The position numbers and the translations under genes were made by a program. From the NCBI GenBank assembly GCA_034432495.1, contig DAOUCB010000168.1:5527-69526 (forward strand): DNA of 64,000 nucleotides, in the 5' to 3' direction. This DNA is from Anaerolineae bacterium. GTDB taxonomy: Bacteria; Chloroflexota; Anaerolineae; Aggregatilineales; Phototrophicaceae. The notes beneath the pieces were generated by a model that saw only the letters and a list, made by a program, of their open reading frames with translations, had not been told where the DNA came from and made no database searches. Positions 2,512 through 34,015 of the stretch are shown here, piece after piece (positions within the stretch are counted from its first letter, which is position 1; each line of letters begins with the position of its first letter).

Positions 2512-4026
2512 TTACAGCGTGACTTCGACGGCGGTGAACGAGAGCGGCGGCAGCGTGATCGAGGCGGTCTGCCCATCAAGCTTCGGTGCAGCGACCTGCG
2601 TCGCAACAATCTGGTTCGGGTTCTCGAAACTGTTGGCGGCTTTGGGATCAGTTCCCGCGACCTGATGGACGGTTCCGATGTTCTTGGGCGCGCGATCCTG
2701 CCAGTGCAGATCGACCGTCAGACTGTCAGTCTGGCTGCGGTTCACCAGGAAAATCGCGCTCGCGCCGCTGGCTTCGTCATAGGACGCAGACACATCGATC
2801 AGCGGCATATCGCCAAATTTCGCGGTCTCGTGCATGGGCGCTTTTACGGCGACATCGAGCGACGCGCCCGCCGCCAGCCGACTGAAAATCATGAAAGGAT
2901 AGTAGATCGACTGCTTGAGCAGCGCATCTTTGGTCGTCAGAATCGGCGCAATCACGTTGACTACCTGCGCGAGGCAGGCGATCTTCAAAACATCCGCTTT
3001 GCGCAGGAAAACGTTCATCCACTGCGCGACAACCAGTGCATCTTCAAGGTTGTAAACTTCCTCGATCAGGTGCGGCGCTTCTGTCCACGCACCCTCGACG
3101 TGCCGTCCCAGACGCGCCTTGTACCACACATTCCACTCGTCCCATTGCAGGAAAACGTCATGATTGGAGCGATTCTTCGCTTTGACGTAGCGCAGCACAC
3201 CACTCAGCGTATCGACAAAGGCTTCCAGTTCGGCGCTGAGCGCGAGGAAGCTGGTCGTGTCGTCATCGACGTTGCTTGCGTAGTAGTGCATCGAGTGGTA
3301 GTTGACCACATCCCAGCAGCGTTCGAGCACCACGCGATCCCATTCAGGATAGGTTGGCATGGTTGCATTCGACGAGCCGCACGACACCAGTTGGATCGAC
3401 GGGTCATGCCAGCGCATCATTTTGGCAGCTTCGCGCGCCTTCTTGCCGTAGTCATCCGCTTCCAGATGACCGATTTGCCAGGGGCCGTCCATCTCGTTGC
3501 CGATGCACCAGTATTTGACGCCATATGGGTCGTGATAGCCATGCGAAGCACGCAAATCGGCGTACTGGGTGCCGACCGGAGCGTTGCAGTATTCAACCAG
3601 ATTGGCGGCGTCCTGAATCGATGCCGTCCCCATGTTGACTGCCAGCATCGGTGCGGTGTTGATGGCCTTGCAGTATTCGATGAATTCGTTCGTGCCGAAC
3701 TGGTTGGTTTCAGTCGATTGCCAGGCCAGGTCACGACGGCGCGGACGCTTATCTTTCGGACCGACGCCATCTTCCCAACGATACCCGCTCAGGAAGTTGC
3801 CGCCGGGATAGCGCATCGCCCGAAAATTGAGTTCGCGCAGCGCGGCAATGACATCCGTTCGCAGGCCATTGGCGTCGGCGTGCGGCGACCCCGGCTCGTA
3901 AATCCCCTCATATATGGAGCGCCCCATATGCTCGGCGAAGCCGCTAAACATCAGCGGCGAAATCGGGCTAATGGTGCGATTCGTGTCCAGATAGACATGC
4001 GCTTTCGTAGATTGGGAAGCAGACAT
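2512..4026 (-). CDS. abfA: alpha-L-arabinofuranosidase, GH51
   Basis: 504 aa with hallmark GH51 stretches: [19 protein letters not shown], and [15 protein letters not shown] (acid/base Glu in the GNEMDG context). Typical length for the family. Confidence 0.9.
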
Positions 4027-19062: not shown

Positions 19063-20343
19063 ATGAGCATCAGCAACGGTTTGGCAATGACACCTCCGCT
19101 GGGATGGAATAGCTGGGATTGCTACGGCACGACCGTGCATGAGGACGAAGTGAAGGCCAACGCCGACTTCATGGCGGCACGGCTTGCTCAATTCGGCTGG
19201 AATTATGTCGTCGTCGATATTCAATGGTACGAGCCAAACGCGCAGGCGCACGGCTATCGCGAGAACGCCGAACTGGTCATTGACGAATATGGGAGGGTGC
19301 TGCCCGCCATCAACCGTTTCCCGTCTGCCGCAAACGGCGCAGGCTTTAAGCCGCTGGCAGACTACGTTCACAGTCTGGGTCTGAAATTCGGCATTCACAT
19401 CATGCGCGGAATACCGCGCCAGGCCGTGCGCCACAATCTGCCGATCCTCAACACAGCTTCTCACGCTCAGGATATTGCCAATACCAGCAGCCCCTGCCCC
19501 TGGAACTCGGATATGTACGGCCTCGATATGGCGAAACCCGGTGCGCAAGCCTACTACGATTCCATCGTCGCGCTCTATGCTTCATGGGATGTCGATTACA
19601 TCAAGGCCGACGACATGCTCTATCCCTATCACGCCGACGAAATCGCCGCCCTCTATGAGGCACTTCAGCGCTGCGGACGCGAAATTGTCCTCAGCCTCTC
19701 TCCCGGCGTCGATTTGACGACCGACCGCTATCAACATCTGCGCCAGCACTGCGAACTGTTTCGCATCTCCGGCGACTTCTGGGATCGCTGGGACGATTTG
19801 AAAAATCAATTTGAGACCTGCAATACCTGGGCCGCCTTCACCGAAGCGGGCTGCTGGGCTGACGCCGATATGCTGCCGCTGGGGCACATTGGTATTCGCG
19901 CCGAACGCGGTGTGGATCGGCAATCGCTGCTCACTCACGATGAACAGATTATGCTCATGACGCTCTGGGTGATGAATCGTTCGCCTCTCATGTTCGGCGG
20001 CGATTTGCCCACCAGCGATGACTTTGCCATCGGCCTGCTCACCAACGCCGAAGTGCTTCAGATCGAGCATTCAAGCCGTGACAATCGTCAATTGTTTCGC
20101 CACGAGAATCAGGTGGCGTGGATCGCCCGCAGCAGCGACTCAGAGGATCGCTATCTCGCCCTGTTCAATCTTGGCGAAGCGCCTTCGACGTTGGAAGTCG
20201 ATCTCGCCACACTCGGCGCTGGAAGTCGTTATGCAGCCCGTGACCTGTGGGCGCAGAACAGCCTCGGTGAATTTTCGGGCAGTCTGCGCCAACAAATCGC
20301 GCCACACGCCGCGAAACTCTATCGTCTGCACCCGCTTTCCTAA
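19063..20343 (+). CDS. alpha-galactosidase, GH27
   Basis: LGWNSWDCYG near the N-terminus and the nucleophile region WDVDYIKADD. GAGAGGA lies upstream of the ATG. Confidence 0.85.
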   Translation: MSISNGLAMTPPLGWNSWDCYGTTVHEDEVKANADFMAARLAQFGWNYVVVDIQWYEPNAQAHGYRENAELVIDEYGRVLPAINRFPSAANGAGFKPLADYVHSLGLKFGIHIMRGIPRQAVRHNLPILNTASHAQDIANTSSPCPWNSDMYGLDMAKPGAQAYYDSIVALYASWDVDYIKADDMLYPYHADEIAALYEALQRCGREIVLSLSPGVDLTTDRYQHLRQHCELFRISGDFWDRWDDLKNQFETCNTWAAFTEAGCWADADMLPLGHIGIRAERGVDRQSLLTHDEQIMLMTLWVMNRSPLMFGGDLPTSDDFAIGLLTNAEVLQIEHSSRDNRQLFRHENQVAWIARSSDSEDRYLALFNLGEAPSTLEVDLATLGAGSRYAARDLWAQNSLGEFSGSLRQQIAPHAAKLYRLHPLS

Positions 20344-20385
20344 AGCGCGCAAACGAGCGCCAATATGCGCCTTCGCGCCTCGCGT

Positions 20386-20414
20386 TTGACAGAAAATTTG
20401 TTCTACTCTAGAAT
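20386..20414 (+). promoter_or_regulatory. near-consensus sigma70 promoter of the SWIM/MoxR/vWA operon
   Basis: TTGACA - exactly 17 nt (gaaaatttgttctactc) - TAGAAT, about 80 nt upstream of the ATG at 20497. A TTCTA-ctc-TAGAA inverted repeat overlaps the -10. Confidence 0.6.
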
Positions 20415-20496
20415 AAGGAAGCACTCATTTGAGCCTATGGTCGTTCTCTGAAAAACCAAACACAGAACGCCCATGCCTTGAGGATAGCAGCCTTCC

Positions 20497-21795
20497 ATGA
20501 CCCCTGAACAGGTCTTGACCTTCGCCAACAGCGATGCCATGCGTAAGAATGCCCAGAAACTGGCGCGTCCAGCGGCGTGGTTATCGCTCAACGCCAGCGA
20601 ACGCGCCGTCTGGGGTGAAATCAAGGGCAGCGGTGCGGCTCCCTATCAGGTGCGCTTCGATCTGCTCGATTCTGGCTATAAATGCAGTTGTCCCAGCCAG
20701 ATTCATCCCTGCAAACATGCGGTTGCCCTGATGCTGTTGTATGCCGACGCCCCGTCGGCTTTCCTACTCGATGCACAGCCCCCCTGGGTCACGACCTGGC
20801 TGAGCGCCCGCGATGCCAGAGCCGCGAAAAAAGCTGAAAACCCAACGGGTGAAATCGCCGATCCAGCCGCGCAGAACAAACGCATCGCCGAACGTGAACT
20901 GAAGGTCAGCGCGGGTATCGACGCCCTCGATCTTTGGCTGCGCGACCTTATGCGCGGCGGCCTCGACGGACTGCCTGGACAAAAAAGCGCCTTCTGGGAC
21001 GCGCTCGCCGCCCGCATGGTCGATGCGCAGGCGCGCGGCCTCGCCAACCAGCTTCAGGAGATGTCGAAGCTTCCACGCACCGGAGCAGGCTGGGCGGGTA
21101 AGCTGCTCGAACGCGCCGGGATGCTCTACCTCCTGCTTGAAGGCTACCGCCACCAGCACACCCTCCCGCCCGATTTGCGCGCGGATATACGTACCATCGT
21201 CGGCTGGAACCAGAAGCAGGAAGACCTGCACGACCTCCCCGCTGTCACTGATCAGTGGCTTGTCCTCTCGCAGCGCATCCACGACGAAGATCGCGGTGAG
21301 ATTCAGCGAACGTGGCTGCGCGGCCTTACCACCAGGCAAAACGCTCTGCTTCTTGATTACTCGTTCAACGGTCGGCCCTTTGAACTCAAGCTCCCCGGCG
21401 GCTCCTGCTTCGAAGGCGACCTGATCTACTATCCCAGCCACTATCCACAGCGCGCCATCATCAAGGAGCGGCGCAAAACCGTCCCGACTCAGAATATGCT
21501 CGCGGGCGAGACCATTCCGGCGCTGCTGACCGCCTATGCCGAAGCCCTGTCGCGCCAGCCCTGGCTCAACCTATTTCCGATGCTGCTGCGCGACGTTTAT
21601 CCCCTGCGCGGCGAAAGCGGCTGGATTGTGCGCGACGCTGATGGTCATGCACTCTCCATCGGTCAGTATGTCGAAAACGGCTGGAAGCTGCTCGCGCTCA
21701 GCGGCGGCTACCCGCTGACCCTCTTCGGCGAATGGGATGGTCAGCGGCTGCTTACTTTGAGCGCCTGGGTCAATGGACGAATGCTGCTCCTATGA
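20497..21795 (+). CDS. SWIM zinc-finger domain protein (432 aa)
   Basis: Canonical SWIM CxC-x(n)-CxH signature: YKCSCPSQIHPCKHAVALMLLY. The remaining roughly 330 aa have no motif I recognise. Confidence 0.8.
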   Translation: MTPEQVLTFANSDAMRKNAQKLARPAAWLSLNASERAVWGEIKGSGAAPYQVRFDLLDSGYKCSCPSQIHPCKHAVALMLLYADAPSAFLLDAQPPWVTTWLSARDARAAKKAENPTGEIADPAAQNKRIAERELKVSAGIDALDLWLRDLMRGGLDGLPGQKSAFWDALAARMVDAQARGLANQLQEMSKLPRTGAGWAGKLLERAGMLYLLLEGYRHQHTLPPDLRADIRTIVGWNQKQEDLHDLPAVTDQWLVLSQRIHDEDRGEIQRTWLRGLTTRQNALLLDYSFNGRPFELKLPGGSCFEGDLIYYPSHYPQRAIIKERRKTVPTQNMLAGETIPALLTAYAEALSRQPWLNLFPMLLRDVYPLRGESGWIVRDADGHALSIGQYVENGWKLLALSGGYPLTLFGEWDGQRLLTLSAWVNGRMLLL

Positions 21796-21804
21796 GGATA
21801 AATC

Positions 21805-23328
21805 ATGTGGAATGACCTGCTAACCACAGGGCTGATTGGCACAGAGCGCCGCGCGCTCGATCTCGAAAACCTGCCCGAATCCTTCCGCGAACTCGTGGCG
21901 CAGCTTGAAGGTCAGGACTCCGAGCGCATTCTGCTCTCACTGGCGGGCGCAGCAACACTTCAGCGCCGTGTCGGGCAAACCGCGCCGCTCGACGCCACGC
22001 CGCTGCTCGATCCCTGTGATCTTAACGATCTGCCACCTTGTTCACCGCGAGCGGGGCTGCTCCTTCAGCAAATTCTCAATCTCTCGCAGTACGCCCCCCT
22101 TCTGCCCGAATGGATCGCGCTCGCAGCGCGCCGGGGGCAGCGCGTCAGCGAGGAATACTTGCCTCGTTTCCTGACAGCGCTTAACCGCCCCGCCCCGCCT
22201 GAACACTTTTACAACATAATCGGCAAGCGTGGGCGTTGGCTCGCCCAACAGAACGAGGGTTGGTCGTATGCTGTCCTGCCACAAAATGATACGGAATGGG
22301 AAACCGCCAGCTTCCCGGCGCGGCTCGAATATCTGCGCCGCCTGCGTGCCAGCCATCCCAACCATGCGCGTGCGCTCGTCGAGTCTGTCTGGAAAAGCGA
22401 GAAGGCGGATAATCGCTCTGCGCTGATCCAAACGTTCGAAGTCAGCCTCACGCTCGAAGATGAGCCATTTCTCGAAGCGATGCTCGATGATCGCGCTGGC
22501 AAAGTCGGGCTGTACGCAGCATCGGTCTTGAAGAATTTGGCTGCATCGGCTTATCGCCAGCGGATAATCACTCGCGGGCAGCAGTTCATCCATATTCACT
22601 GGCAAAAGCAATTGTTGAGCAGAAAACTGGCGATTGAGATCACACTGCCCGAAACCTGTGACGAGTCAATGATTCGCGATGGAATCGACCAGAAGCCCAG
22701 CACCGACTCGGAGCTAGGTACGCGCGCCTATTGGCTGTTCAGTATCGCTACTCGGTTACCATCGTCATTCTGGCTCAGCGATGACTGGTCAGCGCCTGAT
22801 CTTGTGCAGGCGATCAGCGAGAGCGACGATTCGATCAAAACCTATCTCCATACCGCGCTGGCGAATGTCAGTGGACGCGAGCATCATGATCTGCTTGCCC
22901 TCGCCCTGCTCGAAAACGCAGAGGTCGCAGAAGGCGTAAAGGCTCAGGTATTACAAGCCATCTCGCCCCAACTCTGCGAGAATTTCCTCATGCGCGCCCT
23001 GGACAGTGAGCGCAGTTCTAGCAGCGGAAAGAGTATTTTCGAAGTGACCAATCTCTGTAAGTTTGGCTACACCTGGAGCAGCCCGCTAACTCGCAGCTTC
23101 CTTGCGACACTGAAGCAGACACTGAAAGCACGCAAACGACCGCACCTGTCCGACGCAATCACAGCGCATCTGTCTGCCTACGTCACGTTTTTCTCGCCTA
23201 CTTGTGTCGAGGAATTACGGGAGCTGGCGAATATCGAAACCAGCCGACAATCGCTCTGGATCAAGGTTGTGAAGCAGGCCGTTTCCACGCTCGAATTTCG
23301 TCGAAATATGGACAAGGAGTTCGCTTAA
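21805..23328 (+). CDS. uncharacterised 507-aa protein (my recollection: DUF5691-like partner of SWIM/MoxR/vWA clusters)
   Basis: Starts 9 nt after the SWIM gene stop, with GAGGA overlapping that stop. Leu/Ala-rich helical-repeat-like composition. No catalytic motif seen. The DUF assignment is from memory and unverified. Confidence 0.6.
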   Translation: MWNDLLTTGLIGTERRALDLENLPESFRELVAQLEGQDSERILLSLAGAATLQRRVGQTAPLDATPLLDPCDLNDLPPCSPRAGLLLQQILNLSQYAPLLPEWIALAARRGQRVSEEYLPRFLTALNRPAPPEHFYNIIGKRGRWLAQQNEGWSYAVLPQNDTEWETASFPARLEYLRRLRASHPNHARALVESVWKSEKADNRSALIQTFEVSLTLEDEPFLEAMLDDRAGKVGLYAASVLKNLAASAYRQRIITRGQQFIHIHWQKQLLSRKLAIEITLPETCDESMIRDGIDQKPSTDSELGTRAYWLFSIATRLPSSFWLSDDWSAPDLVQAISESDDSIKTYLHTALANVSGREHHDLLALALLENAEVAEGVKAQVLQAISPQLCENFLMRALDSERSSSSGKSIFEVTNLCKFGYTWSSPLTRSFLATLKQTLKARKRPHLSDAITAHLSAYVTFFSPTCVEELRELANIETSRQSLWIKVVKQAVSTLEFRRNMDKEFA

Positions 23329-24413
23329 TGACCACGCCCCTGCTCCGTGAACACGCCGAAGCGCTCTATGCCGAAGAACTCCACACGCTCGCCGAAGCGG
23401 ATCGCCGCGCCCGCCCACCCAGTTGGGCGCTCTCACCCTGGGCAGTCTCGATCTATCTGCTCGGCGGCACGCTCGATAACGGCTTCGTCATCTCGCCCAA
23501 ATACATCGGCGACCGCCGCGTCATCGAAATCGCTATCGCTACCCTCGCCACCGACCGCGCGCTGCTCCTGCTTGGCGTGCCGGGAACCGCCAAAACCTGG
23601 GTCTCCGAGCATCTGAGCGCCGCCATCTCTGGCGATTCGACGCTGCTGATTCAAGGCACGGCTGGAACCAGCGAGGAAGCCATCCGCTACGGTTGGAACT
23701 ACGCCCGTCTACTGGCGGAAGGCCCCTCCATGAACGCGCTCGTCCCCTCGCCGATGATGCGCGCTATGGACGAAGGCAAAATCGCTCGCGTTGAGGAACT
23801 GACACGCATCCCCGCCGATGTGCAGGACACACTCATTACCATCCTCTCCGAGAAAACGCTGCCCATTCCCGAACTCAACAACGAGACGCAGGCGCGCAAA
23901 GGCTTCAACGTTATCGCCACCGCCAATGACCGCGACCGGGGCGTCAACGATCTGTCGAGCGCCCTTAAACGCCGTTTCAACACCGTTGTGCTGCCCCTGC
24001 CCGCCTCGGTCGAAGAAGAAGTCGAGATTGTCCAGCAGCGCGTCGAGAGTCTTGGTCGCGCGCTCGAACTGCCTGCCGAAGCGCCTGCCCTCGAAGAAAT
24101 TCGCCGCATCGTCACCATCTTCCGCGAACTGCGCGCCGGACTCACCGAAGATGGGCAGACCAAACTCAAATCGCCCAGCGCGACCCTCAGCACCGCCGAA
24201 GTCATATCAGTCGTCACCAATGGCCTCTCGCTTGCAGCCCATTTCGGCGATGGCAGCCTGAGCGCTGAAGATGTCGCGGCGGGCATTGTCGGCGCGATTG
24301 TCAAAGACCCGGTGCAGGATCGCGTCGTCTGGCTCGAATATCTCGAAACCATCGCCAGGGAACGCGACGGTTGGAACGACCTCTATCGCGCCTGCCGGGA
24401 AGTCACCAAATGA
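23328..24413 (+). CDS. MoxR-like AAA+ ATPase
   Basis: Walker A LLLGVPGTAKT. MoxR-like Walker B/sensor region KIARVEELTRIPADVQDTLITILSEK. The ATG overlaps the upstream TAA (TAATG). The track start at 23202 would sit inside the previous gene. Confidence 0.8.
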   Translation: MTTPLLREHAEALYAEELHTLAEADRRARPPSWALSPWAVSIYLLGGTLDNGFVISPKYIGDRRVIEIAIATLATDRALLLLGVPGTAKTWVSEHLSAAISGDSTLLIQGTAGTSEEAIRYGWNYARLLAEGPSMNALVPSPMMRAMDEGKIARVEELTRIPADVQDTLITILSEKTLPIPELNNETQARKGFNVIATANDRDRGVNDLSSALKRRFNTVVLPLPASVEEEVEIVQQRVESLGRALELPAEAPALEEIRRIVTIFRELRAGLTEDGQTKLKSPSATLSTAEVISVVTNGLSLAAHFGDGSLSAEDVAAGIVGAIVKDPVQDRVVWLEYLETIARERDGWNDLYRACREVTK

Positions 24414-24497
24414 CAGTTCAAAGTAAACACAGTTAAAAGTTGAAAGGAGTAAGGTTGTGTCTTTACTTTTAACTTTTAACTTTCGACTTTTAACTGT
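24412..24497 (+). repeat. AT-rich heptad-periodic intercistronic repeat with long hairpin (family A, copy 1)
   Basis: Begins at the AAA+ stop codon with GACAGTTCAAAGT. ACAGTTAAAAGTTGAAAG (24429-24446) pairs with CTTTCGACTTTTAACTGT (24480-24497), 17 of 18 positions. The right arm is a 7-nt periodic ACTTTTA/ACTTTCG array. Confidence 0.75.
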
Positions 24498-24512
24498 GGA
24501 GCGCAGCGAAGA

Positions 24513-26846
24513 ATGACCATCCACATTTTCGGCATTCGCCATCACGGGCCGGGATCGGCGCGCAGCCTGTTGAGCGCTCTCGAAGCGCTTCAGCCCGACT
24601 GCATTCTGGTCGAAGGGCCGCCTGATGCGGACAATCTGCTGCCCCTCATGATGCAGGACTCGATGCAGCCGCCCGTCGCTCTGCTGATCTACGACCCTGC
24701 AAACACCCGTCGCGCCGCCTATTATCCCTTCGCCGAATTTTCGCCGGAATGGCAGGCGCTCCGGTACGGATTGGCTTACGCAATCCCCACGCGCTTCATG
24801 GATTTGCCCCAGTCGAACGCCTTTGCGCTTCAGCCCGATCCTAAAACCCTCGCCGATCTGCTGCCGGTTGAGGAAACCGTGCCATTAAGCAAAACCTCGC
24901 CGGAAGGGGACAGCGGGGTATCCAGCGACGATGATCCGGTCGCGGAAACCAGCAGCGAGGACTTCACCTCCGAAATTGATCCTGTCCGCCTCGATCCGCT
25001 GCGCGCCCTTGCCGAAGCGGCAGGATACAACGACAGTGAGCGCTGGTGGGAGCATCTGGTCGAGCAGCGCCTCGACAGCAGCGACCTATTCGCCGCTATT
25101 CTCGAGGCCATGACCGCCCTCCGTGAGCAGACCTCGCCCCTCGATCCATTCCACGAGCACAATGAAATGCTGCGCGAAGCCCACATGCGCAAGACCATCC
25201 GCGAAGCGGAAAAAGCCAGTTATCAGCGCATCGCCGTCGTCTGCGGCGCGTGGCACACCCCTGCCCTCGTGAACATGCCGCCCGCCAAAGCCGATAACAC
25301 CCTGCTCAAAGGTCTGGCGAAAGTCAAAACGAAAGCCACCTGGGTTCCCTGGACGCATGGTCGGCTGGCGCGCGTCAGTGGCTACGGCGCAGGCATCGAG
25401 TCGCCTGGTTGGTACGCTCACCTCTGGCGCACACCCACCCACGAAATCGCCATTCGCTGGATGGCACACGTCGCTCGTCTGCTGCGTGACGAACGGCTCG
25501 ACGCTTCGACAGCGCAGGTTATCGACGCAGTGCGCCTGAGCGAAACACTCGCCGCGCTGCGCGCCCGTCCTGTCCCCGGCCTGACAGAGATGAACGAGGC
25601 GGCTCAGGCCGTAATCTGTTTCGGGCAGCCAGAACCGATGCGTATTATCGAGCGCAAGCTAATCGTCGGCGAGACAATGGGTACTGTCCCCGACGAAACG
25701 CCAACCGTCCCGCTTCAGCAGGACTTACAGGCGCTGCAAAAGCGCCTGCGACTGAAAGTTGAACCTGTCGAGCGTGTGGTTGAACTCGACCTGCGCAAGT
25801 CGAACGATCTTGAACGCAGCCACCTGCTCCACCGCCTGCTGCTGCTCCAAATCCCCTGGGGACGCGCCGATTACAACGTCAACAAAACCGGGACGTTCCG
25901 CGAAAATTGGGTGCTGGTATGGCGGCCTGAACTGGCGATCAATGTGATTGAGGCGAGCATCTGGGGCAACACCGTGCGCGATGGAGCAGCCGCCTTCGCT
26001 CAGGATCGCGCGGATCAGGCCGAAGACTTGCGCGCGCTGTCGGAACTGCTCACCTTTGTCATCCTCTGCGATCTGCCGGACGCGACCGCACATCTCATGA
26101 AGCGGCTTGAGACACAGGCTACCCTCACAAGCGACGTGACACTGCTCATGGCGGCGCTCCCCGCGCTGGCACAGACCGCCCGCTACACCAACGTCCGCGC
26201 CCTCGACCGCAACCTTGTCGCCCAGGTCATTGATGGCATGGTCGTCCGTCTGTGTATTGGGCTGGCGGGAGCGGTCGCCTCGCTCGATGACGCCGCCGCA
26301 ACACAGATGTTTACACTCATCCTCGGTGTACAGTCGGCGCTGCGCCTGCTTCAGAACGAGGAGCAGATTACGCTCTGGTTCGACACGCTCCAGCTAGCGC
26401 TCGACCGCGACAGCCTGCACGGCTTACTGGCGGGGCGTTTTGCGCGCATCCTGCTTGATGCACGTCGCCTCGACGCCGCTGAAGGAACACGCCGCATGAA
26501 ACTGGCGCTCGCCCGCGCCGCCGATCCGGTACAGGCAGCGGCCTGGGTCGAAGGCTTCCTGCGCGAGAGCGGCTCGATCCTGATTTACGACGATCAGCTC
26601 TGGGGCGTCATTGATGAGTGGGTGACTTCGCTCCCTGGTGAACTGTTCCCGAACCTGCTTCCCTTGCTCCGCCGCACCTTTGCCACCTTTTCAAGCTACG
26701 AGCGCCAGCAGATTGGCGAACGAGCGCGTCAGGGCCAGGTTCGCGCCGCAGACGGCAGCGACACGATTGATCATTTCGACGCCGAACGAGCAGCATCCGT
26801 ACTGCCGCTGATCAAACAGCTTCTAGGCTTGCCCGCCTCAACATAA
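24513..26846 (+). CDS. 777-aa uncharacterised protein; N-terminal about 255 aa TraB/PrgY/Tiki-like (my recollection: DUF5682-like)
   Basis: IHIFGIRHHGPGSARSLLSALEALQPDCILVEGP, then NEMLREAHMRKTI, then RIAVVCGAWHTPAL. These match the paired GxxH motifs plus conserved Glu of the TraB/Tiki superfamily. The C-terminal roughly 500 aa are helical and unassigned. Confidence 0.6.
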   Translation: MTIHIFGIRHHGPGSARSLLSALEALQPDCILVEGPPDADNLLPLMMQDSMQPPVALLIYDPANTRRAAYYPFAEFSPEWQALRYGLAYAIPTRFMDLPQSNAFALQPDPKTLADLLPVEETVPLSKTSPEGDSGVSSDDDPVAETSSEDFTSEIDPVRLDPLRALAEAAGYNDSERWWEHLVEQRLDSSDLFAAILEAMTALREQTSPLDPFHEHNEMLREAHMRKTIREAEKASYQRIAVVCGAWHTPALVNMPPAKADNTLLKGLAKVKTKATWVPWTHGRLARVSGYGAGIESPGWYAHLWRTPTHEIAIRWMAHVARLLRDERLDASTAQVIDAVRLSETLAALRARPVPGLTEMNEAAQAVICFGQPEPMRIIERKLIVGETMGTVPDETPTVPLQQDLQALQKRLRLKVEPVERVVELDLRKSNDLERSHLLHRLLLLQIPWGRADYNVNKTGTFRENWVLVWRPELAINVIEASIWGNTVRDGAAAFAQDRADQAEDLRALSELLTFVILCDLPDATAHLMKRLETQATLTSDVTLLMAALPALAQTARYTNVRALDRNLVAQVIDGMVVRLCIGLAGAVASLDDAAATQMFTLILGVQSALRLLQNEEQITLWFDTLQLALDRDSLHGLLAGRFARILLDARRLDAAEGTRRMKLALARAADPVQAAAWVEGFLRESGSILIYDDQLWGVIDEWVTSLPGELFPNLLPLLRRTFATFSSYERQQIGERARQGQVRAADGSDTIDHFDAERAASVLPLIKQLLGLPAST

Positions 26847-26858
26847 GAGGGATTGTTG

Positions 26859-28064
26859 ATGAACGCGAATTATGAACGCCTTAAACGCTGGCGCTTAATC
26901 CTCGGTGCAGATGCGCAATCGATTTGCAACGGCAGCAGTGGCAGCAGCGGCAGCAGTTCAGGCGATGGCAGCGACGGCATTGGAGACTTGAGCGGGGACG
27001 ACGCCGCGATGGATAGCGCGCTCGAAGCACTCTACGACAAGGAACGCAGCGCCGGGTTGGAAGGCTCCGCGCCGAAAGTCGCGCGCTGGCTCGGCGACAT
27101 TCGCAAATTCTTCCCGTCGTCGGTCGTTCGAGTGATGCAGCAGGACGCCATCGAGCGCCTCAATCTGCGACAGCTTCTGCTTGAACCCGAATTGATGCAA
27201 GCCGTCGAGCCAGACGTACACATGGTTACAACCCTGCTGGCACTCAACCGCGTTATGCCCGGCGAAGCCCGCGCGACTGCGCGCCTCGTTGTGCGCAAAG
27301 TTGTGGACGATTTGCTGCGAAAACTGCAAAGCCCGATGCGGCAGGCCGTCCTCGGCAGCCTGAACCGCGCCATTCGCAACCGCCGCCCCCGACACAACGA
27401 AATCGACTGGAATCGCACCATCCGCGCCAACCTCAAACATTACCAGCCGGACTACCACACCATCATCCCCGAAACGCGAATCGGTTTCGGACGCAAGCAG
27501 ATGGCGCTGCGCGAGATTATCCTTTGCGTCGATGAAAGCGGCTCAATGGCGGCCTCGGTCGTCTACGCGGGTGTCTTTGGTGCGGTCTTGGCTTCGCTTC
27601 CGTCGGTCAAAACGCACATGGTCGTTTTCGATACCTCAGTCGTCGATTTGACCGAAGAACTGCAAGACCCGGTGGAACTGCTCTTTGGAACACAGTTAGG
27701 CGGCGGAACCAACATCCACAAGGCGCTGACCTACTGCACCAGCTTGATCACGCGCCCGCAGGAGACGATTCTGATTCTGATCAGCGATCTGTACGAGGGT
27801 GGCAATCGCCTCGAAATGCTCAAGAGCGCCCAGTCACTGGTCGATTCAGGCGTTCAGTTGATCGCGCTGCTGGCGCTCAACGACGATGGATCACCTGCTT
27901 ATGATCACACCAACGCCGCCGCCTTAGCGAGCATGAATGCTCCCGCCTTCGCCTGCACACCCGATTTGTTTCCTGACCTCATGGCTGCCGCTATTAACAA
28001 GCAGGATATTAGACGCTGGGCTGCTCAGCACGATATTGTCACTTCACGGGACGAGCAGAATTGA
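26859..28064 (+). CDS. vWA-domain protein, CoxE-like
   Basis: MIDAS DxSxS in ILCVDESGSMAASV, with the later Thr/Asp elements (GGGTNIHKAL, LISDLYEGG). Helical N-terminal region as in CoxE-type vWA proteins. ATG 26859 is preceded by AGAGGG. The track start is a TTG 6 nt earlier. Confidence 0.8.
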   Translation: MNANYERLKRWRLILGADAQSICNGSSGSSGSSSGDGSDGIGDLSGDDAAMDSALEALYDKERSAGLEGSAPKVARWLGDIRKFFPSSVVRVMQQDAIERLNLRQLLLEPELMQAVEPDVHMVTTLLALNRVMPGEARATARLVVRKVVDDLLRKLQSPMRQAVLGSLNRAIRNRRPRHNEIDWNRTIRANLKHYQPDYHTIIPETRIGFGRKQMALREIILCVDESGSMAASVVYAGVFGAVLASLPSVKTHMVVFDTSVVDLTEELQDPVELLFGTQLGGGTNIHKALTYCTSLITRPQETILILISDLYEGGNRLEMLKSAQSLVDSGVQLIALLALNDDGSPAYDHTNAAALASMNAPAFACTPDLFPDLMAAAINKQDIRRWAAQHDIVTSRDEQN

Positions 28065-28085
28065 TCCAGCGCGTGGCAAGCGAGA

Positions 28086-31000
28086 TTATTGCCACCGCAC
28101 CTCGAAACGGGTTTCCTCGTTTGCGACCAGTGTAAGCGGTACTTCAACCTGTGTCGTCGGCGCAGCTTCGAAATTCTGCTTTCCCGTCTGCACCGTGATA
28201 CGTGTCGCACTGGCGGGAACGGTGACATACAGCGTGCGCTCGCCGCTCACAATCGCCCGGTAGGCACCTGTGATGCTCCCTGGCGCGATGTCGAGGCGCA
28301 GCAGCGGCATATCCAGCGTGAACTGGTCGCGCGGCACATGCGGATCAATCAGCAGACCCTTTCCGTTGGGCGCTGGCTCGACGCCGCAAACGCGCAGCAG
28401 ACCCAGCAGCGGCATCGCGTGAGCATTGCTGTTCATTGCCGGGAAATCGATCATGGGCGTCGCTGCGCTTTGCCATGTGCCGCCGGGGTTCTCCTGCGAA
28501 GTTTTCGTGAACAGCGCGTCCGGCGCAGTCCAGATACCGACCCACGTTTCTGGGAAAATCTCCGCGTGAACGGCGAGCGTCTGCCGCAGCAGCGAACGCC
28601 ACGCCCATTCCGGTGCGCTGCGGCAGTAGCCCCACGTCAGCAGTTGTGAAATGGCAGGCCAGATCAACCCATTCGTCTGTGTAACCGCACCCGTTTTCGA
28701 AGGGAAATCCAGTAACTGTGTGATCGACTTGACCAACGCCTGATCGGTGCCGTGTTCACACGCTGTCCGGCTGATCAGTGCCCAGGGCTGCGCTTCCAGG
28801 TTGATCGCCTCATTATCAACGACCACCACCCCATTCAACTCGTCACGCAGCAGCGCCCGCGCATACCAGCGTCCATTCCACTGCTGGTGCAGCGCCACAT
28901 CCAGGCCAGAGACGAAGCCAGCTATCGCCTCGGCGAATTCGGGATCACGCTCCTGCAACAGCGCCTGTGTGATCGGCAGGACATACAGCGCCATCTGCGT
29001 ATTCGGAATCGACTCGCCGTAGCGCTTGGAATTGGCGAACCACTGTGGAAAGGTCGCGCCGCCATATTTGACGCAGTTCTCAAACACAATTCCATCCGAC
29101 CAGTCGCCATCCCCCATGCGGATCAGGCCGTGATCGCCGCGCCGCACTTCGTAAATCAGGTGGTTGATCGCGCAGCGAACGTGATCGAGCACCGTCGTAC
29201 CATGCGCGCCATTCGGCAGCACCGACGACAGTTCGGGTGGATAGAATGGCACTTCACCATCGAGAAAGGCCAGGTCGCCTGTCGCAGAAAGATATTCGTT
29301 CAGCGCCATCAGAAAAAACAGGTCGAGATCAGACGGCGTGTCGTGAATTACCGCATTGTCGACCAGCCCATGCCCGCTGAAGCCATACCACAGCGCCCCA
29401 TTCGCGCTGTCCATCAATGACATCACCAACCGCAGATTTGCCCGCGCCAGTTCCGGTCGCAGATAGACCAGCGGCAGCGTCGAGAGACACTGATCGCGCG
29501 GCACGCCATCCGCCCCGTGCAGATACAGATAGGCCGAACCCTGCGGCGTGACGTGCGTTTTAAAATACTCGTTGTAGACCGTCGCCGATTGCAGATAATA
29601 GGCGTGCCATGCCATTTCGCGCTTGAGCGTCGCATCGATGCCTGTGTGGAAATAAGGCAGGCACGTCTTCCAATCCTCGGCAGTCTTCGCCAGCACGTCC
29701 CACTTCGGGAATGGCGTGTGAAATTCCAGCGAAGCACCGGGCTGCACAGTCCCGTAAGCGTAGCGCTGGGCGGATTTCTCGCCGGGAGCCAGCTCAAAAT
29801 CGCGGCGCATGACCATGCAGAAGGGCATCGAATCGCTTACAGGCGCGTCAGCCATTGTCGGAAAACACTGCCGAACCGCCTGCGGCTGCGTCACATCGCC
29901 GTTGCCGAAGAAAGCCTGTTTGTTGACGTAAAAGGCATCTGGCCTGCCGCTTAAGTCGCTCAGGAAGATGTTCGCCGGTTCCACGTCGATGTCGCTGACC
30001 GCATCAGGATCAGCATCATGCATAAAATACTGGCGAAAGCGCAAGGCGTTCGCCGCGAGATCCCACTCGATCTTCGGCTCGAACAGGTCATTGATCGCCG
30101 CCCGTTCGCCGTCGAGCGCTGTCGCGAAGGCCTCGCCGCGCAGCCATTGCAGTTTCATTTGCTGGACGTTGACATCCCAGTACTCGTAGCCGCGAAAATC
30201 GACTTGCTCGCTGCCGACGTTCTCATATTCCACGTCCACCAGCAAAAATGGGTAGTCGCCCTGCGGCGCATGAACCCGACGCGTCATGCGGATGTTGTGA
30301 AAGGTCAGCCGCGTTTCGGCGTAACCCATGCCGAAGACGCGCTCGATCTCGATGCCCTGTTGGCGATAGCGAAAAGCGGTCGCCGTGACATCCCCCCGAC
30401 ATTCGAGATAACCGAAGCCACCCGCGTAAGCGAAACGGGCAGATGGATAGTCGAGCAGTTGCGCCGGAAGCGTCGCAGATACCGGGGGCTGCACGCCGCG
30501 TGCCTGAGCGCTGTCGGACGTAACGCTGTGATGCGCAGTCACCGAGCGCGGAATACCTGCCCACAATCGCCGCGCCGCGATCAAAATCTGTGTCGCCAGC
30601 GCGACCAGTAGTTTGAGCAGATTGTTCGCCAGCAGCGCCAAACCGCTGAGCGCGGGAACGTCTGGCCGCGCTGCGTCGCCGCGCGAAGCGAAATAGTTCA
30701 GAAATACGCCGCCGCGATCCCCCAGATAAACCTGTACTGTTCCGTCGTTCGAGGCCAACCCAGTCACCCGGTCGTTACCGATTTGATGCCAGTGATCACG
30801 CCGATCCAGATTGGCGCTGTTGGGAAAGCGTGCGCGTATGTCCGTGTATTGATCGAGCGTGTAGACGTAACAGGGCAAGCCGTTGGCATCCAGCGACCAT
30901 TCGCCGAAAATGCCGCTGCCTTCGCTGGTCGGTTGGAAACGACGCGGATCATCTGAGGCGGCCTGCGCCTCAAGCGGAATTGGTTTGGGGGAGCGCCTGA

Positions 31001-31088
31001 ACCAGCGCCGCAGCGTCAATATCAGCGAAGAGTGGTCAAGTTCGGCATCGCGCATCAGGACGCTGGGGGACGGCACATGGGCGGGCAT
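28086..31088 (-). CDS. 1000-aa (alpha/alpha)6-barrel glycoside phosphorylase/hydrolase-like protein (GH94-like)
   Basis: RMGDGDWSDGIVF resembles the catalytic xDWND(C/S) stretch of GH94 cellobiose/chitobiose phosphorylases. The N-terminal beta-sandwich-like region has an inserted hydrophobic segment (LSGLALLANNLLKLLVALATQILIAA). GAGGA lies upstream of the ATG. Confidence 0.5.
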   Translation of the reverse strand: MPAHVPSPSVLMRDAELDHSSLILTLRRWFRRSPKPIPLEAQAASDDPRRFQPTSEGSGIFGEWSLDANGLPCYVYTLDQYTDIRARFPNSANLDRRDHWHQIGNDRVTGLASNDGTVQVYLGDRGGVFLNYFASRGDAARPDVPALSGLALLANNLLKLLVALATQILIAARRLWAGIPRSVTAHHSVTSDSAQARGVQPPVSATLPAQLLDYPSARFAYAGGFGYLECRGDVTATAFRYRQQGIEIERVFGMGYAETRLTFHNIRMTRRVHAPQGDYPFLLVDVEYENVGSEQVDFRGYEYWDVNVQQMKLQWLRGEAFATALDGERAAINDLFEPKIEWDLAANALRFRQYFMHDADPDAVSDIDVEPANIFLSDLSGRPDAFYVNKQAFFGNGDVTQPQAVRQCFPTMADAPVSDSMPFCMVMRRDFELAPGEKSAQRYAYGTVQPGASLEFHTPFPKWDVLAKTAEDWKTCLPYFHTGIDATLKREMAWHAYYLQSATVYNEYFKTHVTPQGSAYLYLHGADGVPRDQCLSTLPLVYLRPELARANLRLVMSLMDSANGALWYGFSGHGLVDNAVIHDTPSDLDLFFLMALNEYLSATGDLAFLDGEVPFYPPELSSVLPNGAHGTTVLDHVRCAINHLIYEVRRGDHGLIRMGDGDWSDGIVFENCVKYGGATFPQWFANSKRYGESIPNTQMALYVLPITQALLQERDPEFAEAIAGFVSGLDVALHQQWNGRWYARALLRDELNGVVVVDNEAINLEAQPWALISRTACEHGTDQALVKSITQLLDFPSKTGAVTQTNGLIWPAISQLLTWGYCRSAPEWAWRSLLRQTLAVHAEIFPETWVGIWTAPDALFTKTSQENPGGTWQSAATPMIDFPAMNSNAHAMPLLGLLRVCGVEPAPNGKGLLIDPHVPRDQFTLDMPLLRLDIAPGSITGAYRAIVSGERTLYVTVPASATRITVQTGKQNFEAAPTTQVEVPLTLVANEETRFEVRWQ

Positions 31089-31212: not shown

Positions 31213-32157
31213 TTACCAGCTCACGAGGATGACCGAAATATCATCCTGTGTCGAGCGTCGGTTCGCGCTGTCCTGCGAGCGTGCGTAAGCGGCTTCGCCG
31301 AGGTCATCCGCGCCCGCCTCGCCGTGTGCCAGCCCCTCAATCACTTCGGCCTCAGCCAGATTCTTGTACAGCCCGTCGGAACAGAGCAGCAGCGTATCGC
31401 CCGAACCAATTTCGATGCGCGACGTCTGCGCAATCGGGTCTTCGTCGTGAACGCCCAGCGCGTTGATCACGATGTTGGCGGGTGGGATGTTCAGTACCGT
31501 GTTGCCCACCAGAAACCAGCGCCACGCTATATACAGGTCGTAGGGATTGCCGTTAATCGCAATCGTGCCTTCGGCTTGCGGCTCATCGACGCCGTTATAA
31601 GTGTTAAGAACTGTCCCGATGCGGTCACTGTCTTCGGCGCTCAGCAGCCCCAGCCGCACAAAATATTCGAGGTTATCTTCGTCCGGGCAAAGCTGTATCA
31701 GTTCGCCATCTGTGAAGAGATACCCGCGCGTGTCGCCCACCTGCACCGTCAGCAGCCGACTGCCATTTTCGCAGACGACCACCACCGTCACAACTGCCCC
31801 CACGCGATGCCCCGCCGGGAACTCGTCGCCGTTGTTGAGTTCCAGCCGCAACCGCTCGTGCGCTCGGTTGAGCGCGGCGATCACTTTTTGCTCTGCCTCG
31901 CCGTTTGCCGAGCCATCAATGTCCGGCGGCAGGCGCTGCAAATCCTCAATCAGCGTCGTTCGCACCAACTGCGAAGCATCGCGCCCCGTCATCAGTCGCC
32001 CATCCGCCGTTTCATGCTGCTGCCCGCCCATGCCGTCGATCACGGCGAAAACCGGGGCTTTACTGTCGCCATTACTGTTCCCGTCGAAGACCATCACCGC
32101 GTCTTCGCAGCGATCCGGATGCTCAATCGAAGCTCGGCTAAATTCCTGAATTTTCAA
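31213..32157 (-). CDS. PP2C-family Ser/Thr protein phosphatase
   Basis: PP2C metal-binding motifs: RCEDAVMVF, AVIDGMGGQQHE, LLLCSDGLY, QDDISVILV. The start is TTG in a TTGA overlap with the upstream stop. Confidence 0.85.
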   Translation of the reverse strand: MKIQEFSRASIEHPDRCEDAVMVFDGNSNGDSKAPVFAVIDGMGGQQHETADGRLMTGRDASQLVRTTLIEDLQRLPPDIDGSANGEAEQKVIAALNRAHERLRLELNNGDEFPAGHRVGAVVTVVVVCENGSRLLTVQVGDTRGYLFTDGELIQLCPDEDNLEYFVRLGLLSAEDSDRIGTVLNTYNGVDEPQAEGTIAINGNPYDLYIAWRWFLVGNTVLNIPPANIVINALGVHDEDPIAQTSRIEIGSGDTLLLCSDGLYKNLAEAEVIEGLAHGEAGADDLGEAAYARSQDSANRRSTQDDISVILVSW

Positions 32158-32762
32158 GGTTTGTCATCTCGTATCGCTTTGTACAGGCGCAGAAACACAC
32201 CGGGACGTTCGCCGCCCATCTGGCGCAAACGTTCCAGTTCCTCCTGGGTGATGTAAGGCGCAGGTTCGCCGCTCAGGTCCGGCACTTTCGGTTCGGGTGG
32301 TACGCTCGCCACGTTTTGAATCGTCACCGGGTCAGCCAGCGTATTCGACTGCACCACTGGCTGCTCTGTGGGCGCAGGCGAATGTTCAATCGCTGGGGCT
32401 GCCAGGGCGCTCGACTGAACAACAGGCGGCTCGATTTTGATTTCCTTGAAGCGATAGCCGCAGTATGAGCAGACCTTCGCCCCTTCGCGGCGCTGCGCGC
32501 CACACTGCGGACACCACTTCTGCGTCAGGTTGTGACTCCGTGCTTTACTGCTCAGCAGCTTACCATGAAACTTGCTTCCACACTGACTACAAACCTTCGC
32601 GCCCATCTTGTTCATAAAGCCGCAGTGGGAGCAGCGTTTCCGCAGCATCCCACTGGTATCTTCAAGAAAAAAAGCGTAGCCGCACTCGGTGCAGACCTTC
32701 GCCGCTGCGCGATTGCTGTGCCCACATTTCGGGCAGCGCTTTCGCTCGTGCTCGATGCTCAT
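32154..32762 (-). CDS. triple zinc-ribbon protein
   Basis: Three tandem CxxC-x(10-11)-CxxC ribbons (CPKCGHSN..CTECGYAF; CSHCGFMN..CSQCGSKF; CPQCGAQR..CSYCGYRF), then a Pro-rich linker and a short conserved-looking tail. ATGA overlap with the vWA gene. Confidence 0.75.
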   Translation of the reverse strand: MSIEHERKRCPKCGHSNRAAAKVCTECGYAFFLEDTSGMLRKRCSHCGFMNKMGAKVCSQCGSKFHGKLLSSKARSHNLTQKWCPQCGAQRREGAKVCSYCGYRFKEIKIEPPVVQSSALAAPAIEHSPAPTEQPVVQSNTLADPVTIQNVASVPPEPKVPDLSGEPAPYITQEELERLRQMGGERPGVFLRLYKAIRDDKP

Positions 32763-34015
32763 GAGCCGTCTGTATCCTCTTCGGTCAGGCTCACAGTCGA
32801 TGTGCCGAGTGCCGCCGTCTTACGCGCGACTTCGTTGCCCGTTCCTGCCGCTTCCAGCACCTCAGTCATTGAGCGATTGCCTACTGCCTGCGCGATTTCC
32901 AGCGCTTCGGTGCGATGCCGTTCCGCGCCAGCGGCATCACCCGCATTCAACGCCTCAGTCATAGCCTGCGTCGAAGCCGCCAACTGTCCCTGACCCAGAT
33001 AACCCGCGACAATGGGGTTGACCTGATTGATCTGCGCAGCGTCGTTCGTCTGCTGAAGAATCATCCAGGTCGATTGATCGCCCTTCTCCTCGACGCGCTG
33101 CCCGCCCGCCGCATACAGCACAGACGGCTTGCAGGCGACGACACGCGCTCCAACCGCTGCCAGTTCAATGTGAACGATAAAGTCACGGTGATCTTTCGAC
33201 GCCATCGGCGGCACAGGCACGACCCAGGTATGATCATCACCCAGCGGCGCGGCCTCGCCCTTGACCCAGTTCGGGTACGCCTGCGACAGCGACATAATCC
33301 GCGCGCCCGCGGGCGTCCACAGATGCAGCACCACATCGCTCGCGACGGTCTGCGACATCTTGACCACCAGCGCGTTGAATTCGGCTTGTAGGTCATCGGG
33401 GTTTGGGACGGCCTTCGGCATCCAGCCCTGCGTAATCTGCGCCATCTTCGTCAGTTGATCAGGATTCCAGTCATTGCCGAAGCCATAAGCGCACAGATGG
33501 ATGTGCATATCCGCCGCATCCTTGACCGCCCGCGCCAGCGTCGATTCCTGTTCAGTGTTCTGTCCATCGCTCAGGAAAATGCCGTAACGCGCCACGTCGC
33601 CGCGAATTTCCCGCTGTCCTTCGATAGCGACCCGGATGCCGGTTGACATCGACGTGCCACCGAACATCTTGACCTGCTTGAGCGTGCGCCGGAAGTTCGA
33701 GACCAGTTGATTGCGATCCGTCTGCATCGTGATTTGCGTCGGCGGAACAACTTCGCTGGCGTCGTTGTCGAACACCACTACTTGCAGAATGATGCCGCTC
33801 GGTGCGTTGAGCAGCAAATCCTCCAGCGTCGAAATCGCGGCATTGAATTTTGCGCCCTGCATCGAGCCGGAGACGTCGCAAATCAGCGAAATGACCGTTG
33901 ATTGCGCTGTCGGTGGCAGATCATTGGCAGTGACCGAGACGACGCCCCAGACCGAGTTCGTCGTCGGGCTGATATACGGGTTAAAGTAGGTTTTGAAGCT
34001 GAATGCGCTTGCCAT
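32759..34015 (-). CDS. vWA-domain protein (TerY-like N-terminal vWA plus extra C-terminal domain)
   Basis: MIDAS motif LICDVSGSMQG, then GGTSMSTG and IFLSDGQNT. 418 aa, about twice the size of a minimal vWA domain. Confidence 0.8.
   Translation of the reverse strand: MASAFSFKTYFNPYISPTTNSVWGVVSVTANDLPPTAQSTVISLICDVSGSMQGAKFNAAISTLEDLLLNAPSGIILQVVVFDNDASEVVPPTQITMQTDRNQLVSNFRRTLKQVKMFGGTSMSTGIRVAIEGQREIRGDVARYGIFLSDGQNTEQESTLARAVKDAADMHIHLCAYGFGNDWNPDQLTKMAQITQGWMPKAVPNPDDLQAEFNALVVKMSQTVASDVVLHLWTPAGARIMSLSQAYPNWVKGEAAPLGDDHTWVVPVPPMASKDHRDFIVHIELAAVGARVVACKPSVLYAAGGQRVEEKGDQSTWMILQQTNDAAQINQVNPIVAGYLGQGQLAASTQAMTEALNAGDAAGAERHRTEALEIAQAVGNRSMTEVLEAAGTGNEVARKTAALGTSTVSLTEEDTDGS

Follow-up and report, generated by a model that had tools for sequence, protein, structure and literature searches.

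A Chloroflexota orthologue of the Deinococcus ddrTUVWX operon carries a candidate LexA-type operator and shares its five-gene organization with loci in other bacterial phyla

The closest described relative of the system considered here is the ddrTUVWX operon of Deinococcus. In D. deserti these five genes (Deide_18730-18690) form an operon that is among the most strongly radiation-induced loci of the organism, to which no function was given; a radiation/desiccation response motif (RDRM) lies upstream, and induction depends on IrrE and DdrO (Blanchard et al., 2017, PMC5552922). In D. taeanensis, ddrTUVWX has been described with a 78-residue open reading frame (ORF) between ddrV and ddrW (PMC9510100). 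Here we analyze a 64-kb stretch of DNA from an Anaerolineae bacterium (Chloroflexota), referred to as the window, in which an earlier reading of the sequence (the original prediction) had singled out a five-gene operon as lacking both assigned biology and experimental characterization. Neither statement holds, since the same operon is named in Deinococcus, where its radiation induction and IrrE/DdrO dependence have already been demonstrated. Using tblastn we located a D. taeanensis plasmid locus (L081; such handles denote the loci compared) annotated as SWIM, DUF5691, AAA, 78-aa hypothetical protein, DUF5682 and VWA, which showed 37% (SWIM), 71% (AAA), 41% (DUF5682) and 54% (vWA) identity to the window proteins, the DUF5691 proteins being matched by annotation only. 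This layout is that of the published D. taeanensis operon including the 78-residue ORF, and on the strength of this correspondence and of the four homologous proteins we consider it established that the window operon is a Chloroflexota orthologue of ddrTUVWX. No RDRM-like site (up to three mismatches to the consensus) was found within 300 nt upstream of the first window gene; as the DdrO/IrrE regulator is specific to Deinococcus, this bears on regulation and not on orthology. On balance, we lean towards the view that the five products constitute a self-contained YehL-type MoxR/vWA machine of the DNA-damage response.

The E. coli locus annotated as yehL (MoxR), yehM (DUF5682), yehP (VWA) and yehQ (SWIM) is more remote, with 41% identity between the window ATPase and YehL, 28% between the N-terminal half of the 777-aa window protein and YehM, and 35% between the vWA protein and YehP. 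Judged by these similarities, yehLMPQ is a distant, rearranged cousin of the window operon: in E. coli, where yehI and yehK accompany the cluster, the SWIM gene comes last, and YehQ shares just the SWIM motif with DdrT. Comparisons with hhalign accordingly gave the SWIM motif only between the SWIM protein and YehQ, and no similarity of the DUF5691 protein to YehQ or YehI. YehL names one of seven MoxR subfamilies in a scheme cited in PMC3893208. The window ATPase has an AAA_5 domain with an intact Walker A motif, a vWA gene two positions downstream and a linked DUF5682 (YehM-type) gene, and by these features it probably belongs to the YehL subfamily. Within the literature searched for DUF5682, DUF5691, MoxR with SWIM and vWA, and SWIM with LexA, no mechanistic or functional study was found, and the DUF names appeared in no paper.

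The operon ORFs were taken from program-made ORF calling and their junctions were read from the sequence (Table 1). The first two genes are 9 nt apart, the second and third overlap at a TAATG stop/start, and the remaining two gaps measure 99 and 12 nt in this order. The length of the ddrV product is counted from the ATG within TAATG and that of the ddrX product from an ATG, with a TTG upstream at 26853. The promoter in front of the first gene is the only sigma70-like site within positions 19800-28400 (8.6 kb). On re-reading, the five same-strand genes, the near-consensus promoter and the tight spacing agreed with the original prediction, and a Pfam scan returned all five families that it had expected, namely SWIM (marginal, at 20.5 bits barely over the cut-off), DUF5691 (E 2.5e-98), AAA_5 (E 6e-38), DUF5682 (E 2e-267) and VWA_CoxE (E 3.7e-50). 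An NCBIfam scan of the operon proteins added nothing to these assignments. The SWIM motif CSCPSQIHPCKH, the Walker A motif GVPGTAKT and the metal ion-dependent adhesion site (MIDAS) CVDESGSM, likewise expected, are all present.

Table 1. Coordinates of the operon features in the window and of NADAR and Macro-domain genes inserted between ddrW and ddrX in other loci
Feature	Location	Coordinates	Strand	Remarks
sigma70-type promoter TTGACA-17-TAGAAT	window	20386-20414	+	11/12 positions match
candidate LexA-type operator AGAAAATTTGTTCT, 14-bp palindrome-like box	window	20391-20404	+	inside promoter spacer
ddrT homologue, 432-aa SWIM zinc-finger protein	window	20497-21795	+	Pfam SWIM, residues 60-82
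ddrU homologue, 507-aa DUF5691 protein	window	21805-23328	+	full-length Pfam DUF5691
ddrV homologue, 361-aa MoxR-class AAA+ ATPase (AAA_5, YehL subfamily)	window	23328-24413	+	AAA_5, Walker A
long hairpin, built from heptamer repeats	window	24428-24498	+	19-bp inverted repeat, 95% complementary
ddrW homologue, 777-aa DUF5682 protein	window	24513-26846	+	Pfam DUF5682
ddrX homologue, 401-aa CoxE-type vWA protein	window	26859-28064	+	VWA_CoxE, MIDAS DxSxS
NADAR insert	L005	10626-11078		
NADAR insert	L007	6843-7289		
NADAR insert	L019	7704-8150		
NADAR insert	L025	8255-8684		frameshifted
NADAR insert	L045	10359-10796		
NADAR insert	L065	10298-10864		
NADAR insert	L084	8295-8750		L084/85
Macro-domain gene	L001	5413-6150		cyanobacterial

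A scan of one genome per species gave at least 599 confirmed species matches, and 80 loci were retained for comparison. All five genes were present in 43 of the 57 retained loci with adequate flank and were colinear in every one of the 43, which bears out the original prediction that the cluster is kept as a self-contained unit across phyla. The retained loci belong to Cyanobacteria, Melainabacteria and Sericytochromatia, Chloroflexota, Acidobacteriota, Armatimonadota, Planctomycetota, Deinococcota, Actinomycetota, and Beta- and Gammaproteobacteria; matches in a plasmid collection extend this range to Bacteroidota, Alphaproteobacteria and further Actinomycetota, so that the cluster spans about ten phyla. 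Clustering of the DUF5682 homologues alone gives over 8000 clusters when 90% identity is required and 3065 at 50%. Across phyla, the median identity with the respective window protein was 79% for the ATPase, 64% for the vWA protein, 53% for DUF5682, 40% for the SWIM protein and 31% for DUF5691. In a plasmid of Hymenobacter sp. HDW8 the SWIM and DUF5691 proteins are joined in a single 1009-aa protein (L087 2189-5218); this locus also has NUDIX and DUF4406 genes upstream, a PDDEXK nuclease gene downstream, and a 203-aa ORF between the ATPase and DUF5682 genes. The autonomy of the cluster as a five-gene unit, together with its published damage induction in Deinococcus, can be regarded as established.

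The candidate operator of the window lies between the -35 and -10 hexamers and has one mismatch to GAAC-N4-GTTC, which is the LexA box of Gram-positive bacteria and also of Dehalococcoides. It is moreover near the cyanobacterial LexA consensus AGTACWNWTGTACT (PMC3091678). Under a leave-one-out position weight matrix (PWM) the box scored 15.6 bits and was the top site of the entire window. A second PWM was built from 48 published cyanobacterial LexA sites (PMC3091678). With this published-site PWM, 14 of 51 loci had a site of at least 10 bits in front of their first gene, compared to 1.8% of 6968 background windows (nominal binomial P 2e-13, related loci not being independent), and sites of at least 12 bits in 12 of 51 loci compared to 0.7% of the background; every positive locus was from Cyanobacteria, Sericytochromatia or Chloroflexota. 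Two consensus patterns from the literature placed a site in 9 of 30 cyanobacterial and Chloroflexota loci, against 3.2 expected from an intergenic background (P 0.006). In other loci, similar 14-mers (AGTACATTTGAACT, AGTTCATTTGAACT, AGTACATTTGTGCT, AGAACATAAGTTCT and AGAAAATATGTTCT are examples) stand at about -60 to -137 relative to the first gene and frequently border on the -10 element, and in L084, which has 72% DUF5682 identity to the window, the sole long identical upstream block consists of the -35 hexamer and the operator, TGACAGAAAATTTGTTCT. A second LexA-like site of the window, at 49009, falls within overlapping ORFs and was taken to be chance. In the proteobacterial loci, candidate boxes of the CTGT-N8-ACAG (Gamma/Beta) and GTTC-N7-GTTC (alpha) types were unconvincing, the matches at -1 falling within the coding start.

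A different type of damage signal was found in the two actinobacterial loci. The mycobacterial damage promoter that acts independently of RecA and LexA (RecA-NDp or P1-type) has the form tTGTCRgtg-8nt-TannnT (PMC5656591), and both loci contain motifs that fit it, TGTCGGTG-N8-TAGAAA just upstream of the SWIM gene in Nocardia farcinica (L086 2964-2985) and TGTCGGTC-N8-TAGTCT about 40 nt upstream of the SWIM gene in Nonomuraea gerenzanensis (L090). A relaxed version of the pattern, which matched five times in 1.42 Mb, admits the Nocardia site and not the Nonomuraea site, as the latter has one mismatch. The window also holds a relaxed RecA-NDp-like match at 6627-6647, TGTCGGTGTCCAGGTTAGCCT, which in a Chloroflexi genome is probably fortuitous. 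Taken with the RDRM/DdrO control published for Deinococcus, the LexA-type boxes and RecA-NDp motifs suggest that three non-homologous damage regulators captured the same operon, which thus appears to be wired to LexA, RecA-NDp and DdrO/IrrE. From these upstream sequences we infer, with good support, that the operon is under damage control in the window genome and in other phyla. A stress-response role had been put forward in the original prediction, and it is plausible.

Further features of the upstream regions should be mentioned. In the promoter region of D. taeanensis (L081, about 2700-2780; TTGACAGAAACAGTACATGTGTTACAATTACGCCAGAAACATAA) the -35 context TTGACAGAAA is identical to that of the window, and a LexA-like sequence, AGTACATGTGTTAC, lies between -35 and -10. 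It is followed by a 17-bp imperfect palindrome, TTACGCCAGAAACATAA, which by the consensus is a candidate RDRM. A leader block, GAATACGGATGAC...N...AAACGTTA(C/T)(G/C)ACAGC, is found upstream of the SWIM gene, about 20-90 nt past the LexA-like box, in L012, L017, L020, L021 and L026 and is common to Leptolyngbya-type, Phormidium and Sericytochromatia loci, and could represent an element of the 5' untranslated region or a second operator. In L083, the closest relative on a large contig, genes for an HTH_20-type regulator and a HATPase_c protein (1384-1965) directly precede the SWIM gene and there is no LexA-like box; the SWIM gene itself (1955-3251) is frameshifted, and is a possible pseudogene or an assembly error.

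Several loci contain a NADAR gene (PF08719, E 1e-43 to 1e-54) between the DUF5682 and vWA genes (Table 1). They are distributed over four phyla, being cyanobacterial, acidobacterial, Trueperaceae and Chloroflexota loci, the last including a close relative of the window, and a Macro-domain gene occupies the same place in a further locus. NADARs reverse the ADP-ribosylation of DNA bases, and ybiA of E. coli lies within a LexA-controlled operon (PMC11125620; PMC11543638). The recurrence of NADAR and Macro inserts hints, weakly, that the substrate of the machine might involve nucleic acid or protein that is ADP-ribosylated or adducted in some other way. Other inserts in the operon, such as Uma2, 23S-IVP, transporters and a kinase, look like unrelated passengers.

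MoxR and vWA proteins can also be read as a chaperone that inserts a metal or cofactor, as in CoxD/CoxE, NorQ/NorD or CobS/CobT-CobN, with the client encoded elsewhere and DUF5682 as the large subunit that binds the substrate or cofactor. The match of the vWA protein to VWA_CoxE and its MIDAS DESGS speak for such a chaperone, as do matches of the AAA_5 ATPase to NorQ chains in the PDB and to a phage 'porphyrin biosynthesis' (CobS-like) PHROG. When all flanking ORFs of the 80 loci were clustered, however, no sixth conserved family emerged, and any neighbour family was present in at most six loci, indicating that no client metalloenzyme sits beside the cluster. The original prediction would have given way to an ordinary chaperone set had a metalloenzyme been consistently adjacent, and on this point it stands. 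The genomic contexts are moreover unrelated from locus to locus, the window neighbours belong to sugar metabolism, three distinct DNA-damage regulatory signals are found upstream, and NADAR and Macro inserts do not suit cofactor insertion. The heme-binding protein ChaN (2g5g) also gave a weak fold match to the N-terminal domain of DdrW over its full length, but this match is not significant (E 4.6, template modelling (TM) score 0.29-0.32). We therefore consider a cofactor chaperone unlikely.

The NADAR and Macro domains are also typical antitoxins, which brings in a MoxR-vWA 'ternary' conflict or anti-phage system, in which a threshold switch would free a DUF5682 hydrolase effector upon infection or prophage induction and the inserts would act as antitoxin-like safeguards. 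Consistent with this, the cluster is patchily distributed, with many copies on large plasmids or on replicons filed as plasmids, it is frequent in filamentous or multicellular bacteria, and its ATPase gave a weak bpMoxR match (23.5 bits, under the cut-off of 27). The window furthermore contains a TerY-P-like trio 3 kb away from the operon, comprising genes for a PP2C phosphatase (31213-32157), a multi-zinc-ribbon protein (32154-32762) and a vWA protein (32759-34015) in overlapping tandem on the minus strand. The original prediction had taken this module as a functional hint, but it is not a conserved neighbour in the 80 loci, and its presence beside the window operon is incidental. PADLOC-DB 2.0 returned only a marginal PDC-S62 match (E 1e-4) for the SWIM protein and none for the other four, the cluster is not described in Kaur et al. 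(2020, PMC7159879), its domain content is fixed without a variable effector, and the identity of the ATPase and vWA proteins across phyla is extreme for a conflict system. Finally, only one of 50,697 phage records had a DUF5682 match, and a distant one. This match (MT835988.1, 10644-12758; 27% identity, yeh-type) is on a 14-kb 'Bacteriophage sp.' contig from human faeces, the sole such match in the phage collection, and may be bacterial DNA misfiled as phage. With no PADLOC system, very high conservation and near-absence from phage genomes, the conflict-response idea of the original prediction is weak, and we regard it as decidedly unlikely.

The proteins themselves were examined for motifs and folds. 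Across 43 homologues of the SWIM protein, the CxCx(n)CxH motif and several Trp and Gly positions do not vary, and the DUF5691 protein is all-alpha with the HEAT-like motif DEPFLEAALDDR..VR..AA.LL in the alignment. Searches against PDB chains with the DUF5682, DUF5691 and SWIM proteins, as single sequences or profiles, returned nothing relevant. For the ATPase the nearest solved relatives are midasin, the best sequence match (E 2.6e-10), and NorQ. The midasin match would suit a general stress remodeller of proteins or ribonucleoproteins for desiccation or oxidative stress, which would act on a conserved complex of the cell (ribosomes or RNA polymerase, for example) and would have been drawn into damage regulons only secondarily. 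Conservation this high implies that the cellular substrate is invariant, the radiation/desiccation response regulon of Deinococcus answers desiccation as well as radiation, and the hosts are mainly soil, crust and mat organisms. Against such a remodeller, the 80 loci show no linkage of the cluster to ribosomal or RNA-processing genes, the regulators detected are specifically those of DNA damage, and NADAR enzymes act on nucleic-acid bases, and hence we hold it to be very unlikely. All three alternatives, the cofactor chaperone, the conflict system and the general stress remodeller, thus rank lower than the DNA-damage machine.

For DdrW, an AlphaFold2 model (mean predicted local distance difference test (pLDDT) 82.8) consists of an N-terminal alpha/beta domain (about residues 1-290) with a disordered insert, followed by an alpha-solenoid. 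The N-terminal domain contains the invariant stretches GIRHHGPGS, EGP, PPVALL.Y, MDLP, REA.MR, CGAWH and SGYGAG..SPGWY.HLW, and the residues G7-I-R-H10, G245-A-W-H248, E34, E222 and R226 are invariant in 62 sequences; this pattern suits an enzyme, and DdrW is possibly a hydrolase. Paired GxxH motifs with conserved Glu and Arg are taken to define the TraB/PrgY/GumN-Tiki-ChaN-EreA superfamily, to which we do not assign DdrW on the basis of these residues. A Pfam scan of residues 1-296 with E values up to 10 gave DUF5682 alone and no TraB, ChaN or EreA family, and the best 150 matches of the N-terminal domain profile against 1.84 billion representatives were all DUF5682. Foldseek searches with the N-terminal domain model (pLDDT 78) found no match below E 0.1, ChaN (2g5g) and the EreA-like 3b55 being ranked 26-27 with 281-291 columns at the E value and TM scores given above. 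Hence, the 'TraB-like' label that the original prediction had attached to the 777-aa protein is not established. A histidine-phosphatase reading based on the RHHG motif and short Sts-1 matches was dropped, as these covered only about 100 columns with E above 2. With the full-length DdrW model Foldseek gave weak helical-repeat matches (E of at least 0.02) to cohesin SA2 and karyopherins, which indicate a similar architecture in the model and not homology.

A DNA-damage machine could operate as follows. In undamaged cells a LexA-type repressor would sit on AGAAAATTTGTTCT, and its damage-induced self-cleavage would free the promoter, as the motif, its position and its comparative enrichment suggest. 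From the observed gene spacing, a single mRNA is predicted to yield all five proteins by coupled translation. DdrV would form the ring ATPase, and DdrX would dock onto it via its vWA/MIDAS domain and grip an acidic residue of the target, by analogy to NorD with NorQ. Since the two are fused in some genomes, DdrT and DdrU probably act as one unit, which together with the DdrW alpha-solenoid may form a target-selecting scaffold where the SWIM finger is the recognition module. ATP-driven pulling would then remodel or evict a conserved protein or nucleoprotein substrate that is troublesome after DNA damage, and the N-terminal domain of DdrW with its invariant His, Glu and Arg residues is a candidate for a hydrolytic activity. 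The assembly of the complex, target recognition by SWIM, hydrolysis by DdrW and the nature of the substrate are put forward as hypotheses. The original prediction had MoxR and vWA loading the SWIM and DUF5682 proteins, which likewise is a hypothesis. More speculatively, it is possible, though we hold this only tentatively, that ddrTUVWX/yehLMPQ is a hitherto overlooked, near-universal bacterial DNA-damage tolerance machine, an AAA+/vWA extractor with its own hydrolase, that was recruited independently into the LexA, PafBC/RecA-NDp and DdrO/IrrE regulons. If so, the extractor would clear damage-trapped proteins or ADP-ribosylated or adducted nucleoprotein lesions, comparable to p97-assisted repair of DNA-protein crosslinks.

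A number of observations weigh against a machine of the DNA-damage response. The window box scores just 10.8 bits with the published-site PWM and is then third best in the window, and no LexA-like boxes were found upstream of the acidobacterial, proteobacterial, planctomycete and armatimonadete loci. Loci that are related cannot be counted as independent samples, and horizontal transfer could have carried the operators along with the operon; in one close relative an HTH gene, instead of a box, directly precedes the operon. LexA of cyanobacteria controls non-repair genes too (PMC3091678), and in E. coli yehLM is H-NS-silenced and not a known SOS member. Moreover, D. radiodurans and D. geothermalis are without the operon, indicating that ddrTUVWX is dispensable for extreme radiation resistance. 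As for the proteins, none of the five has a recognized DNA-repair enzyme domain, and the Pfam and Foldseek searches with the putatively catalytic N-terminal domain of DdrW gave no significant match to an enzyme family.

The gap between ddrV and ddrW in the window is filled by a structured repeat, as had been predicted, and the hairpin was confirmed (minimum free energy -33 kcal/mol, z = -3.65). It is not specific to the operon, though: its heptamer repeat, CTTTTAA/CTTTCGA, has seven matches in the window where 0.08 are expected, including further intergenic copies at 46596-46619 and 63213-63236, and we thus consider it a dispersed genomic repeat rather than an operon-specific RNA. Searched against Rfam, the operon matched no family at the hairpin or in the leader. 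The repeat and its complement form long hairpins in intergenic DNA (24428-24498, 46560-46620 and 63210-63236) and resemble a cyanobacterial short tandemly repeated repetitive (STRR) or repetitive extragenic palindromic (REP)-type element, although in a Chloroflexi genome. In other loci the ATPase-DUF5682 junction is either tightly coupled or holds unrelated long hairpins or genes of up to 7 kb; junction hairpins from local tandem repeats reach -80 kcal/mol in different phyla (e.g., L076, L018, L024, L056 and L083), and inserted genes include a Uma2 nuclease and a 23S-IVP protein. The junction could be an insertion hot spot; alternatively, selection may act there on a hairpin within the operon. 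On either side, the window operon is flanked by genes for an alpha-galactosidase (19063-20343, plus strand) and a 1000-aa GH94-like glycoside phosphorylase (28086-31088, minus strand), with solute-binding protein and permease genes farther upstream; these sugar-utilization surroundings are unrelated to the operon.

The ddrTUVWX genes have been named since 2017 and are strongly radiation-induced with no function, and yehLMPQ, one of the two MoxR systems of E. coli, is equally blank. A fixed five-part unit in about ten phyla, with engine proteins of 65-80% identity between them and three apparent, unrelated damage regulators, turns what was a Deinococcus curiosity into a general problem of bacterial genome maintenance. 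The evidence for damage regulons across phyla, the link to NADAR and Macro genes and the fusion of SWIM with DUF5691 are new with respect to the literature searched. They open the function of ddrTUVWX/yehLMPQ to direct testing, and experimental handles exist in the operator box, in Walker B and MIDAS mutants, in the His, Glu and Arg residues that are invariant in DdrW, and in the NADAR link.

Compared to known systems, the window set resembles NorQ/NorD, CbbQ/CbbO, CoxD/CoxE and CobS/CobT in combining an AAA+ ring with a vWA/MIDAS adaptor, NorQ being detectably similar in sequence and the vWA protein CoxE-type, and by analogy the engine mechanism is likely the same, with MIDAS gripping the target and the ATPase remodelling it. 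Those pairs sit beside the enzyme they mature, whereas the window cluster has no conserved client and adds three dedicated proteins and damage-type regulation. Midasin/Rea1 similarly contains AAA_5 modules, long helical scaffolds and a MIDAS domain; it is, in contrast, a single polypeptide of 4,900 residues, has six AAA modules and works on pre-60S ribosomes, while the window set consists of separate proteins with no ribosome link among the flanking genes of the 80 loci. The MoxR-vWA ternary systems with VMAP, iSTAND and beta-propeller proteins (Kaur et al., 2020, PMC7159879) share the MoxR and vWA core, extra partners and multicellular hosts, whereas the window cluster is without VMAP, iSTAND, beta-propeller or variable effectors, has a sub-threshold bpMoxR match and is highly conserved. 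Deinococcus ddrTUVWX differs in its host, in being controlled via an RDRM where the window has a candidate LexA-type operator, and, in D. taeanensis, in holding the 78-aa ORF where the window has the repeat hairpin; it has the same five families in the same order as the window, and in both a damage-type operator, in the window a candidate one, overlaps or adjoins the promoter.

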